Of a stretch of DNA of 64,000 bases, positions 3,307 to 40,955 are shown one piece after another (the first letter of the stretch is position 1; each line of letters opens with the position of its first letter). The DNA is taken from assembly GCA_965279515.1 (NCBI GenBank), contig CBDIID010000003.1, forward strand, positions 1,440,001 to 1,504,000, written 5' to 3'. The position numbers were made by a program, and so were the translations under genes. The notes below the pieces were generated by a model. The model was not told where the DNA came from and ran no database searches. It saw nothing but the letters and a program-made list of their open reading frames with translations. This stretch comes from Turneriella sp. (GTDB taxonomy: Bacteria; Spirochaetota; Leptospiria; Turneriellales; Turneriellaceae).

Positions 3307-3912
3307 CTACATTGCGGTCATGCGTGAATGGCCGGTAAGCTTCTCCATTTCGCCCAGCCACTTGCGAACATGCGGATAATCCGCAAGGTCAAAACCACCC
3401 TGATCGGCGACATGCGTATAGGCATAGAGAGCAATATCGGCAATCGAAGCCGTTGCCGCTCCGAACCAATGATGTTCGCGCAGGTGATCATCCATGATCG
3501 AAAGAGCCTTATACCCTTTCGGTAAATTGGCGTCATACTCGGCGCGGCGTTCCGCTATGGTGTTAGTAATACTTTGTATTGCCCGGTTCACGGCAATGCG
3601 GGGTTCGTGATCGTACTGCTCGAAGAACATCCATTGCAACACGTGCGCCTGCGACAGCTTATCCTGCGGCCAGAAGGAGCTACCCTGCGCGAAGTAATAG
3701 AGAATCGCGTTCGACTCGGGTAGATATGAACCGTCTTCAAGCTGCACCAGCGGTACGCGCGCATTCGGGTTCATTTTTTTGAACTCCCCGGTTTGCGTTG
3801 CCTTGTGCCGGGTATCAGTCTCAATCCACTCGTAGTGAATCTTCAGATAGTCGAGAATGAGTTTTACCTTATGGCAGTTTCCCGACGAAGACATTCCCCA
3901 GACGCGTATCAT
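3307..3912 (-). CDS. Glutathione S-transferase family protein
   Basis: SGNCHKV, NPNARVP, LPESNAILYY, SIADIALYAYTH. Confidence 0.92.
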   Translation of the reverse strand: MIRVWGMSSSGNCHKVKLILDYLKIHYEWIETDTRHKATQTGEFKKMNPNARVPLVQLEDGSYLPESNAILYYFAQGSSFWPQDKLSQAHVLQWMFFEQYDHEPRIAVNRAIQSITNTIAERRAEYDANLPKGYKALSIMDDHLREHHWFGAATASIADIALYAYTHVADQGGFDLADYPHVRKWLGEMEKLTGHSRMTAM

Positions 3913-4802
3913 GGCCGGAGCAGAACCTCTTTACGCGCGCACTGAGCCTGCGAACCCGTGGGTTCGCTGCCCATGTATGCCTGGCAGCTAAAAGTAAAGT
4001 TTGTCAGTGCCTCGCGCATGGGATGATCGCCGAGTTTGCCTTCGGCCTTGAGCTTCTCTGCCTTATCGAGCACGTCGTCGATGTATGAACCGAGGCAGCG
4101 CAAAACCAACGTACGCGCAGAGTAAGCGGCATAGCGCGGTTTTTCATGATCGAGATTTTTTTTCGCCCATTCGCAGATGACTTCCTTTTCCTTTTCGGAA
4201 TAGTTGTACATGTATTCGGGCGCATTGAAGGCTGCATCGGCGAGATATTCCCGTTTCGTATCGGTGGCTGCTTTTTTGATGCGGTCGAAATTTCTCAGCC
4301 GGCCCTGATACAACGCGTGCCGGTAACCTTCATTGCGCGTGGCATTTTGCGGATGGGCGTCGAGCACCTTGAAAAGTGCTGCGTCTTTCTTTTGCAATGT
4401 GGCGAGCACCGTGGTGAGCTCGGCCGCATAATAAGAGGCATAAGTCTTGTTTTGCTCCAGGCCTTTGATAAATGTGTCGGCAGTTTTCGGGCTCACCAGT
4501 TTGGGGTTTTTCAGGGCATCGCCGAGCGAGGTGCGGTAGTTATAGATATAACTCATCGTTGCCGCGGATAGTTTTTCATCTTTTGAGGCGAAAGCATTGC
4601 CGAGGTCAGGCAATGACTTCACCATGCCGTCGGCGTCGATGATTGCCTTGACTTTGCCATCTTCACCGTCGGGGCAAGAGCTGACCGAGGCATACTGCAG
4701 ATCGATTGTGCATTTTTCGCCAACAGCTTTCAGCGCGTCAGAGAGGGGTGAGGCAGAGAGGGAGGAAAAAAGCAGGGGAAACCCTAACAGATATTTAAGC
4801 AT
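3909..4802 (-). CDS. Secreted hypothetical protein
   Basis: 297-aa ORF with signal peptide MLKYLLGFPLLFSSLSA; ATGA overlap with GST gene. Confidence 0.8.
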   Translation of the reverse strand: MLKYLLGFPLLFSSLSASPLSDALKAVGEKCTIDLQYASVSSCPDGEDGKVKAIIDADGMVKSLPDLGNAFASKDEKLSAATMSYIYNYRTSLGDALKNPKLVSPKTADTFIKGLEQNKTYASYYAAELTTVLATLQKKDAALFKVLDAHPQNATRNEGYRHALYQGRLRNFDRIKKAATDTKREYLADAAFNAPEYMYNYSEKEKEVICEWAKKNLDHEKPRYAAYSARTLVLRCLGSYIDDVLDKAEKLKAEGKLGDHPMREALTNFTFSCQAYMGSEPTGSQAQCARKEVLLRP

Positions 4803-4899
4803 ATGTCAGGTTTTGAAAATTTGGATGAGAAGGCAAGTGAAGCAGCGGGATAAGCAGCGGGATAAAAGAAGTTTTGCGCACAAGCTCGCACTATGGCTT

Positions 4900-5014
4900 T
4901 AACCACCCCGCCCCTGCGGGGCACCCCTCCGGAGGAGGGGAATGCTTCGGAAAAAGCTTTGTCCCAAACTTCCCCTCCTATGGAGGGGTGTCAGGCGAAG
5001 CCTGACGGGGTGGT
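4900..5014. repeat. REP-like inverted doublet, copy 1
   Basis: AACCACCCCG[hairpin]CACCCCTCC-GGA-GGAGGGGAA, spacer, then TTCCCCTCC-TAT-GGAGGGGTG[TCAGGC-GAA-GCCTGA]CGGGGTGGT. Confidence 0.9.
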
Positions 5015-5029
5015 CACACGATGTAGGCG

Positions 5030-5055
5030 GTCAGGCGAAGCCTGACGGGGTGGTT
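5030..5055. repeat. Extra partial copy of right REP end
   Basis: GTCAGGCGAAGCCTGACGGGGTGGT repeated 40 bp after 4990-5014. Confidence 0.85.
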
Positions 5056-5128
5056 CATCCACGGAATTCGCAGACCTAAAATTCTCTTGAACAATAAGAT
5101 TAGAGTATGCAACCGGCCAAAGACGACC

Positions 5129-5506
5129 ATGCGTCACACGGGTAAGTATAAGTCGCTACCGTTTAATCCAAAACTCAAGCAACGCGCGAAAGAACTGCGG
5201 CGTGCTGGAAATTTACCTGAGGTATTACTTTGGAATCAACTCAAGAAAAAACAATTGCTCGGTCTTGACTTTGACCGACAAAAGATCATTGGCAACTATA
5301 TTGTCGATTTTTACTGTGCAGAAAAATCCGTCGTTCTGGAAGTGGATGGCAGTAGCCATAACGGAAAACAGGAATACGACGCGCAACGCGATGCTTTCTT
5401 CACGAGCCTGAATCTTAAAGTATTGCATATTACGGCTGACGATGTTAAAAACAATCTCTCACAAGTGATTGAGTTTTTACAAAATCACCCCGCGTTATGC
5501 TTCTAA
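5129..5506 (+). CDS. DUF559 (Vsr-like) endonuclease domain protein
   Basis: RAKELRR...EVLLWNQL...FDRQKIIGNYIVDFYC...LEVDGSSH...YDAQRD; ATG at 5129 within ORF 5087..5506. Confidence 0.9.
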   Translation: MRHTGKYKSLPFNPKLKQRAKELRRAGNLPEVLLWNQLKKKQLLGLDFDRQKIIGNYIVDFYCAEKSVVLEVDGSSHNGKQEYDAQRDAFFTSLNLKVLHITADDVKNNLSQVIEFLQNHPALCF

Positions 5507-5620
5507 CCACCCCGCCCCTACGGGGCACCCCTCCGGAGGAGGGGAATGCTTCGGAAAAAGCTTTGTCCCAAACTTCCCCTCTTATGGAGGGGTGGCAGGC
5601 GAAGCCTGACGGGGTGGTTA
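5504..5620. repeat. REP-like inverted doublet, copy 2
   Basis: TAACCACCCCG...CGGGGTGGTTA perfect 11-bp terminal IR; near-identical to 4900-5014. Confidence 0.9.
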
Positions 5621-7027
5621 CTGATGAATCGCCCAACCGCCATTATTCTCCGCGGCATCTTTGATAATTTCGCTGAGCGTCGGGTGCGCATGGCAGGTGC
5701 GCGCCACGTCTTCGGCTGACGCGCCGAACTCCATCGCGAGTGTTAACTCGGCGATGAGCTCCGACGCGCGCGCGCCGACGATGTAGGCGCCCAGCAGGCG
5801 ATCTGTTGTTTTATCGGACAACAATTTTAGCTGGCCATCGCCTTCCATCATCGCCTTCGCGCGGCCGTTGGGTTTAAAGAACGAGCGACCGATTTTATAT
5901 TCGATGCCCTTTTCTTTCAGCTCTTCTTCGCCGAGACCCACCCACGCCACTTCGGGATGCGTGTAGACGACGCCCGGTATCGCATCGTAATTCACATGAC
6001 CCGCCTGGCCCGCCATCACTTCGACGCAGGCCACGCCCTCTTCCATCGCCTTGTGCGCGAGCATCGGCCCGTTGATACAATCGCCGATCGCATAAACCGA
6101 AGGCACCGAAGTCTGGTAGGTATGCATATCGACCGCGATGCGGCCGCGTTCGGTGAGTTTCACACCCACCTTGTCGAGGCCGAGATTTTCGAGGTAAGGC
6201 TTGCGGCCCACCGCGCAGAGAATCACATCGCCTTCAAAGGTTTTGGTTTCACCAGCAGGATTTTTCACCGTGACGATGCCGCCCTTACCCTTGACTTCGG
6301 CCTTTTCCACCTTGTGCTCGAAAAAGAATTCGATGCCCTGCTGCTCCAGAATGCGTTGCGCAAGACTGGACATCTGCCTGTCGGCCGTACCGAAGAGCCG
6401 CGGCAAAAATTCGATCACGCTGACTTTTGCGCCAAGACGGCGCCAGACCGAACCCAGCTCTAACCCAATCACGCCCGCACCGATCACAATCATGTGCTGC
6501 GGTACCTTCGGCAGCGCAATCGCATGATCTGAGGTAATAATGACTTTGCCGTCGACCGGCACCGTTGGCAATTCGATGGGGATAGACCCCGTCGCTAAAA
6601 TTATTTTTTTAGCCTTGAGAGTTTCAACAACAGACTTGTCGGCCGGGTTTATCACCTGAACTTCCGTCGGCGACGTGAGACTGCCGAAGCCGACAAAACG
6701 TTCGATCTTGTTCTTTTTCATGAGAAAGTCAACGCCGCCGGTAACTTCGGAGACAACCTTATCTTTGCGTTTCAGCATTTGCGCCACATCCATTTTGACA
6801 TCTTTTGCGGAAATGCCGTGCTCGCCGAAATGTTTCAGCGCGTTCTCATAGTGCTCGCTCGAATCCAATAGGGCTTTGGAAGGGATACATCCGACATTGA
6901 GGCATGTGCCGCCCATGGTCGCGCGCTTTTCGACAATGGCAACGCTCATCTTCAGCTGCGCCGCGCGTATGGCCGAAACATAACCTGCAGGGCCGCCGCC
7001 GATCACGACAAGATCAAATTCTTTCAT
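5618..7027 (-). CDS. lpdA: Dihydrolipoamide dehydrogenase (E3)
   Basis: [22 protein letters not shown] redox motif, [16 protein letters not shown]. Confidence 0.97.
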
Positions 7028-7086
7028 AATCAACCGTCACCGGGACCCGCGATAAGCAGGCAATGAATCTAAAGGAAGAGCGGGGA

Positions 7087-40873: not shown

Positions 40874-40955
40874 TCCCCACCCCCGGCCCCTCCCCGCATG
40901 CGGGGAGGGGAGTAACGGGCTCCTCCCCCGCTTGCGGGGGAGGCTGGGAGGGGGA
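40874..40955. repeat. REP-like doublet filling desaturase-TetR spacer
   Basis: CCCCTCCCCGC-AT-GCGGGGAGGGG and CCTCCCCCGC-TT-GCGGGGGAGG hairpins with C-rich/G-rich tails. Confidence 0.8.

Follow-up and report, generated by a model that had tools for sequence, protein, structure and literature searches.

The stretch of DNA considered here (the window, 64,000 nt, G000:C3:1440001-1504000 of the 4.9-Mb Turneriella sp. genome G000) carries, next to lpdA, a small nuclease gene of the DUF559 family enclosed by two almost identical structured repeats, and the question raised by this locus is what kind of unit, if any, the gene and its repeats form together. Each repeat is a doublet, that is, an inverted pair of one unit type (an L unit and an R unit). 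Within the genus, at least one such unit lies within 300 nt of 23 of the 24 DUF559 loci found, and across phyla a strict unit lies within 400 nt of the gene in 77 of 80 related loci. The proposal of an initial annotation of this DNA that gene and palindromes make up one unit thus stands both genus-wide and cross-phylum, whereas the doublet-gene-doublet arrangement that it described is only one of several layouts (full doublets on both sides in 11 of the 80 loci). The recurrence of the same gene-plus-repeat cassette in many phyla suggests that it is likely a selfish DNA element. As to its form, we see about an even chance that the locus is one copy of a widespread selfish, homing-like cassette, whose nuclease would cut at or next to its own units and whose gene would then be copied by host repair.

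The whole insert is contained in the 815-nt intergenic region between an upstream gene and lpdA, and its parts are the following (window positions):

3909..4802, minus strand: upstream neighbour gene, 297 aa, no Pfam family; left border of the intergenic region
4901..4942: doublet 1, L unit; C-rich third-strand block, short hairpin, then CCCCTCC/GGAGGGG hairpin; strict unit 4903-4940, minus orientation
4943..4969: doublet 1, spacer; 27 nt, non-palindromic, identical to 5547-5573
4970..5014: doublet 1, R unit; CCCCTCC/GGAGGGG hairpin, GAA-loop hairpin (GCGAAGC), then G-rich third-strand block GGGGTGG; strict unit 4972-5013, plus orientation
5015..5054: 40-nt tandem duplication; 15-nt filler (5015-5029) and second R-unit end (5030-5054)
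5055..5128, plus strand: linker from the R end to the ATG; 74 nt, 43% G+C, in-frame TTG at 5087
5129..5506, plus strand: DUF559 nuclease gene; 125 aa, TAA stop overlapping the start of doublet 2
5505..5546: doublet 2, L unit; strict unit 5507-5544
5547..5573: doublet 2, spacer; 27/27 identical to 4943-4969
5574..5618: doublet 2, R unit; one stem mismatch per hairpin relative to doublet 1
5618..7033, minus strand: lpdA (dihydrolipoyl dehydrogenase); stop codon 5618-5620 overlapping the last bases of doublet 2

The two 115-bp direct repeats first described, 604 bp apart and with three mismatches, were recovered by both a repeat search and blastn, and the direct repeat as a whole covers 131 nt (4887-5017 and 5491-5621, offset 604 nt). 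The doublets proper (4901-5014 and 5505-5618) align over 115 of 115 positions at 97.4% identity (E 1e-53, blastn against the genome), and their three mismatches (4916/5520, 4978/5582 and 4991/5595) all fall within units, leaving the spacer, as had been remarked, the same in both copies. The inverted pairing was likewise borne out, with an L and an R unit mapped in each repeat, and the extra right end proved to match 4990-5014 at 25 of 25 positions. The gene in between is intact and indeed richer in A+T, with a G+C content of 42.1% as compared to 53.1% for the window and 63.5% for the doublet. The motif GCGAAGC, previously assigned to one hairpin, is present, but in three of them (starts at 4995, 5035 and 5599). 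Folding of the doublet as a single strand of DNA gives -43 kcal/mol (z -7.7, with none of 200 shuffles as stable), and a single unit forms two adjacent hairpins followed by an unpaired G-rich tail. No consensus promoter was detected in the linker, a promoter/terminator scan was negative in and beside the repeats, and an Rfam search returned only sub-threshold microRNA noise. The 40-nt duplication is missing in a near-identical 259-nt contig from another sample (run X5), which skips 4992-5031 and differs in one other letter. Within its filler, positions 5018-5029 share 12 identical bases with 5778-5789 inside lpdA, 760 nt off, which could be either templated filler DNA or chance.

By their sequence pattern, the units are members of the BoxC/PIT/TMECO class of triplex-type repeats, known since the 1990s, an identity that the initial annotation did not recognise. 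Their order is a CCCCTCC C stem, a 3-nt loop, a GGAGGGG G stem, a second loop and a GGGGTGG block that mirrors the G stem with T opposite A. Three of the four window units pass a strict triplex-pattern finder, and the fourth, the R unit of doublet 2, has one stem mismatch. The same finder returned 105 units at 67 sites of the genome and none in each of three order-2 Markov genomes, and 38 of the 67 sites are doublets, all in L-R order (C-rich unit, then G-rich unit) and none reversed. The polarity of the third block over 173 hairpin sites was scored as antiparallel in 103 and parallel in 72, a count confounded by mirror-symmetric G tracts. Inner hairpins on the G-rich strand, taken from the units of the 80 related loci, carry GNA loops in 141 of 212 cases and TNC in 1, these counts coming from kin-related and thus non-independent units; G and A are fixed in the GNA loops and the middle base varies (GAA 92, GCA 27, GTA 17, GGA 5). 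GNA loops are known to give unusually stable DNA mini-hairpins.

The window units share with the repeats described in PMC4666352 (and in Hoyne et al. 2000, as cited there) the block order, the purine-motif mirror G block, the inverted pairs of two subtypes and the over-representation. They differ in having 7-nt instead of 9-nt stems and a second loop of 14-18 nt with its own GNA-loop hairpin instead of one of 3 nt. A further difference is that the window units bracket a nuclease gene: the part of Holder et al. 2015 (PMC4666352) drawn on here ties such repeats to local genome instability but to no other known function, reports for TMECO repeats neither an associated gene nor an association with mobile elements nor a common function of the flanking genes, and does not contain the word 'endonuclease'. 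As to the earlier label of REP (repetitive extragenic palindromic) doublets, the gene is flanked by inverted repeats, but these are not an abundant classical REP, the window subtype amounting to three doublets in the 4.9-Mb genome (blastn). The sole one beyond the window (C3:177991-178104) has another spacer and lies between two unrelated genes, without a DUF559 gene. Nor are the repeats shared with a REP-associated tyrosine transposase (RAYT) elsewhere, since the only Y1_Tnp match of the genome (C3:2616152-2616472) has different palindromes and no triplex-type unit within 5.6 kb. That gene, RAYT-like or IS200-like, is bracketed by its own perfect or near-perfect palindromes of 35-38 nt with a GGGAATTAATTCCC core (L005:1445-1482 and 1870-1904), as a separate REP/RAYT-type pair.

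How tightly the units are bound to the gene can be seen already within this genome, which contains two strong and two weak DUF559 matches. The second strong one (L001) lies between inverted units of a related subtype. One of the weak matches (L004, G000:C3:3433482-3433773) is a 74-aa frame that joins N- and C-terminal DUF559 parts between two inverted units, and looks like an internal-deletion stage on the way from a gene-bearing cassette to a gene-less doublet. A relaxed finder returned 165 units on C3 and 16 neighbouring pairs spaced by 150-2500 nt, only two of which enclose less than 500 nt, namely those around the window gene and around the 74-aa remnant, both DUF559. With regard to its surroundings, the L001 cassette (L001:1428-1907, G000:C3:3619974-3620453) sits between the end of an upstream open reading frame and the apparent start of an alpha/beta-hydrolase-like frame, an arrangement found as well at the same-genus locus L031.

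The 24 DUF559 loci of the genus come from 11 of 14 same-genus genomes, and 16 of them have units on both sides; the sole locus without units is a 47-aa fragment at a contig end. Units are concentrated next to the gene, with 60 in 13.8 kb near it as compared to 1 in 35.3 kb at 700-1500 nt. An inverted pair encloses the gene in 11 loci, and in 9, the window included, it is placed between two doublets. In a maximum-likelihood tree of 20 proteins, the window protein groups with three others that are doublet-flanked by the same unit (support 100/99), and a second doublet-flanked clade carries a larger composite unit (90/94). Layout labels require three changes on this tree, as compared to 6.9 on average after shuffling, and only 1 of 500 shuffles was as low, a result that, as relatives share labels, stands for clustering and not for independent events. 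Repeat type and layout follow the nuclease tree.

The wider set of 80 related loci was retrieved with an alignment of three intact proteins of the window clade, one of the loci being the same as a genus locus. According to their record titles, the relatives come from Cyanobacteria, Desulfobacterota, Geobacter, Nitrosomonas, Gallionella, Bacteroidota, Fibrobacterota, Chloroflexi, Clostridia, Armatimonadota and others, and their proteins are 59-76% identical, whereas the window protein shares 29-47% identity with the DUF559 paralogues from other genus clades, one of which belongs to the same genome. The sequence of the unit is nearly constant across phyla. Strict units occur on both sides of the gene in 48 of the 80 loci, and their density falls from 209 in 45.5 kb within 300 nt to 9 in 42.3 kb at 400-700 nt. 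R unit-gene-L unit is the most frequent core (38 of 80), and an L unit downstream with no upstream unit is found in six. Direct repeats from flank to flank reach at least 40 nt in 39 loci and at least 90 nt in 19. Five loci (L057, L060, L064, L065 and L111) show the window layout with a spacer that is locus-specific yet the same on both sides, and tandem amplification of units beside the gene is seen in L095, L101, L121 and L126. Several cassettes continue the reading frame of a host gene (hsdS, mod and Type ISP genes). The part of Steczkiewicz et al. 2012 (PMC3424549) drawn on here places VSR, DUF559 and DUF2726 in one clade and states 'No HGT observed', against which the cross-phylum distribution argues for this DUF559 clade. 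In plasmid and phage collections only relatives below 45% identity were found, the closest phage-record match being 32-39%, so no vector is indicated. Milman et al. 2023 (PMC9881135), in the part drawn on here, report DUF559 proteins as enriched in predicted programmed inversions (odds ratio 14.3).

Reading frames open through such inserts were also met within the genus. In L020:990-1833 and L022:824-1618, hsdS contains gene-less doublets of the window type, in frame, at both places where a conserved region meets a target-recognition domain, with a 510-aa frame open through both doublets in L020, where one insert measures 99 nt (33 codons). In L034 (genome G013), a large methylase gene of a restriction-modification (R-M) system contains a DUF559 cassette that is read in frame, with 805 aa open within the locus (1343 aa in another measure).

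Is the window cassette an insertion? No DUF559 gene was found beside lpdA in 11 syntenic same-genus loci, and a homologue of the 297-aa upstream gene adjoins lpdA in three same-genus genomes. In one relative, upstream gene and lpdA are separated by 114 nt, and the only feature there is a terminator-like hairpin, of which the last lpdA codons form part. The comparison supports the view that the window cassette is an insertion absent from the same-genus lpdA loci. The initial annotation had suggested looking there for empty or solo-doublet alleles. All 10 loci that extend over the lpdA 3' end lack the gene; nine of them have no unit within 500 nt past the stop, and the tenth has a unit of another subtype. 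A native lpdA terminator arm was sought as a remnant within the insert and gave no signal (best match 11/19). It was also considered whether the repeat extends leftward from doublet 1 into the decayed 3' end of a DUF559 gene, and by about 20 nt to the right of the R ends; this was dropped for the window, where 233, 715 and 1994 of 2000 shuffles scored equally in local alignments, but it does hold in some relatives (L029, L036). The intergenic site beyond lpdA seems to collect repeats: three same-genus genomes (L008, L009 and L012, positions ~1290-1480) have in common, at this place, a different and unrelated structured repeat of about 150 nt.

The protein itself is a clear member of its family, with a match to DUF559 (PF04480) of 103.6 bits against a cut-off of 20.6 (E 6.8e-30, profile positions 2-104 of 109). 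All 16 residues that are invariant in a 32-sequence alignment are present in it, among them D60, E71, D73, H77 and D84, acidic and histidine positions that may be catalytic. An AlphaFold model of the 125-aa protein (pLDDT 91.7) shows a single domain with a short helical N-terminus, and Foldseek matches it to 3hrl (E 1.5e-6), to the catalytic domain of I-Bth0305I (3r3p, probability 1.00, TM 0.60/0.75) and to Vsr (1cw0, probability 0.95), 3hrl being also the only solved relative by sequence (E 1.5e-12). As judged from this model, the window protein has the Vsr/I-Bth0305I nuclease fold. Proportions of nonsynonymous and synonymous differences (pN/pS) against four relatives are 0.135/0.793, 0.267/0.787, 0.170/0.810 and 0.157/0.889 (ratios 0.17-0.34), which from the codon comparison places the protein under purifying selection.

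A pathway that would bring these data together starts with the DUF559 nuclease, predicted to cut at or beside its own units. Host recombination repair would then copy the gene into other unit-bearing sites by means of the 42-45-nt homologies offered by the units. Repeated breakage and repair at the units would produce local duplications, and the duplicated doublet would be a by-product of this process. The presence of two doublets suggests a tandem or circular head-to-tail 'gene + doublet' form, and the layouts R-gene-L, gene-doublet, doublet-gene and doublet-gene-doublet could all be different cuts of the circular order gene, L, spacer, R. We infer both that the protein recognises and cuts the units and that spread goes through break repair and not through transposition. 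In the portion of PMC3239194 relevant here, I-Bth0305I serves as an example in which a nuclease alone suffices for homing.

Several observations weigh against this homing-like reading. In the contigs of three public runs of the organism, a shared unitig of 61 nt has about twofold depth and one of 603 nt has single depth, with no alternative joint, hence no circle junction, excision or solo-doublet allele, rare forms being beyond what contigs can show. Neither a target-site duplication nor conserved cassette ends beyond the units were found when cassette ends were compared. Same-genus relatives are 72-82% identical in lpdA and none is near-isogenic enough to serve as an empty allele or to fix the exact boundaries and the date of the insertion. 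With only three doublets of its subtype, the genome bears no sign of a recent burst. By simple homing, an R-gene-L cassette could enter only an empty site of the form R-L, yet all 38 strict doublets in this genome are L-R. Moreover, the spacers of the flanking doublets differ in L056, L062 and L123, and one doublet is inverted in L061. Finally, an R-M family frame (of at least 80 aa and within 700 nt) accompanies 38 of the 80 loci, with HsdS in 24 and HsdR, HsdM, N6_N4_Mtase or Type ISP in the remainder, and homologous flanks are shared by many of the 80; given both facts, the cassette may have hitch-hiked with R-M systems for part of its spread across phyla, and there is room for an R-M-linked cellular role of DUF559.

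Such a role is the core of one alternative, according to which the DUF559 nuclease would serve its host in repair or defence, perhaps in connection with R-M, and would have gathered around it unstable repeats of the BoxC/PIT type or regulatory or terminator elements, the direct repeat being a local tandem duplication brought about by the instability of the repeats. Together with the R-M neighbourhood of nearly half of the related loci, the purifying selection on the protein, the position of doublet 2 where a relative has the terminator-like hairpin of lpdA, and the link of such repeats to genome instability and not to mobile elements (in the part of PMC4666352 cited above) would all suit it. 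The window locus itself, in turn, has no methylase or R-M gene nearby, the gene is missing from the lpdA site of the same-genus genomes searched, and the cassettes in hsdS, mod and Type ISP genes are in frame inside them instead of being separate operon members. The identity across phyla also exceeds that between paralogues of one genome, the units are nearly the same across phyla and tied to a nuclease clade, and no promoter-like or terminator-like site was found in the repeats; we regard this explanation as improbable. It is still less probable, in our view, that the units mark both ends of a non-autonomous element which a different, unlinked enzyme mobilises, with DUF559 as a passenger, for example an addiction or defence gene. 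The excess of gene-less doublets would be natural in that case (38 strict doublets against two intact genes and one remnant in this genome), as would doublets in same-genus genomes without a DUF559 match, such as G010 (82% complete). What speaks against a mere passenger is that DUF559 is the only cargo between closely spaced units of the genome and a constant partner in the genus and beyond it, that unit type follows nuclease clade, and that the sole Y1 transposase has palindromes unrelated to the units.

A transposon-like element, close to what the initial annotation proposed, is somewhat easier to defend than the two previous explanations, yet we still consider it unlikely. The nuclease would in this case nick the units at both doublet ends, and a 604-bp circle of gene plus one doublet, or a rolling-circle multimer, would re-insert, the doublets being either a terminal redundancy or a long target duplication. 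Spacers that agree within a locus and differ between loci (window, L057, L064, L065, L111) are in line with it, and the layouts fit cuts of a circular gene-L-spacer-R (R-gene-L 38, L downstream only 6, double doublets 11). Copies of the gene end, 15-32 nt long, lie beside the flanking units in 7 of 88 loci, none of whose flanks holds a full second copy of the gene, and the tandem units of the four loci named above, together with the 40-nt duplication of the window, could be read in the same way. The expected circle junction or excision allele is missing from the contigs of the three runs, and no short target duplication was found. The differences between doublets fall in the units at the window (three, and none in the spacer) and in the spacer at L043 (six, and none in the units), and since the loci disagree, a target duplication is not singled out. 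A PD-(D/E)XK nuclease of about 110 aa is not known to have strand-transfer or ligation activity, which also counts against transposition. The homing-like cassette, copied by host repair, is the reading that we prefer.

As in REP/RAYT systems (REPtrons, REPINs), a small gene is flanked by inverted cognate palindromes, gene-less doublets are dispersed and repeat type follows enzyme lineage. The enzyme of the window, in contrast, is a Vsr-fold PD-(D/E)XK nuclease and not an HUH Y1 transposase, and dispersal concerns the repeat superfamily (105 units at 67 sites) and hardly the window subtype, with its three doublets. Another difference is that the DUF559 gene is spread across phyla, whereas RAYTs are mostly vertically inherited. 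With the EDxHD homing endonucleases, as far as they are covered by the parts of PMC3239194 (I-Bth0305I) and PMC2677866 (predicted family) used here, the cassette has in common the catalytic fold, a nuclease-only selfish gene able to sit inside host genes, and a predicted spread by break repair. Unlike them, the window protein has only 125 aa, with no large DNA-binding domain, no intron and no intein, and occupies an intergenic chromosomal site, and DUF559 genes, bordered by structured repeats, are often part of a frame that reads through them. Finally, miniature inverted-repeat transposable elements (MITEs) and the Rickettsia palindromic elements resemble the cassette in their gene-less palindromic copies, some of them in frame, as with the 33-codon insert and its counterparts in hsdS of two same-genus genomes. 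Inverted units are present, and the 74-aa remnant shows the decay from a gene-bearing to a gene-less form; the cassettes differ in that no target-site duplication is seen and in that the partner gene encodes a nuclease and not a transposase.

We tentatively suggest, as a possibility that falls somewhat short of an even chance, that the enzymes so far missing as partners of the BoxC/PIT 'triplex' repeats are the DUF559 nucleases. Nucleases and repeats together would form a pan-bacterial class of selfish elements that needs only a Vsr-fold nuclease of about 110 aa, whose substrate would be the G-rich strand, in its folded state, of the end units belonging to the element. Such an element would spread by way of a 'gene + doublet' form joined head to tail, either as a circle or in tandem, would leave doublets without the gene in its wake and would be able to live in frame in host genes, above all those of R-M systems. 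A literature search found no paper linking DUF559, PF04480 or COG2852 to flanking repeats, subscription journals and supplements being outside its scope. With a constant nuclease partner, the origin and spread of BoxC/PIT/TMECO repeats would become directly testable, as a single small protein and a 45-nt DNA substrate would be enough. The selfish element so defined would be of a new design, in which structured cognate ends enclose a nuclease gene and a reading frame often continues through it. This would matter for genome annotation, where spurious N- or C-terminal extensions and 'DUF559' calls in R-M genes are concerned, for how hsdS and mod genes evolve, and possibly for finding new nucleases with structure specificity.

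Other forms of the repeats occur as well. The window contains at 40875-40954 a further triplex-type doublet of another subtype (CCTCCCC/GGGGAGG stems), and doublets with the same geometry lie at C3:1428541, 2035533 and 2103711. In groundwater metagenome contigs (runs X7 and X11), the end of an R unit is joined to the start of an L unit through a conserved spacer of 24-27 nt at a depth of 26-44, a junction that may represent a gene-less 'R-L' form of the cassette and whose spacer resembles that of L099.

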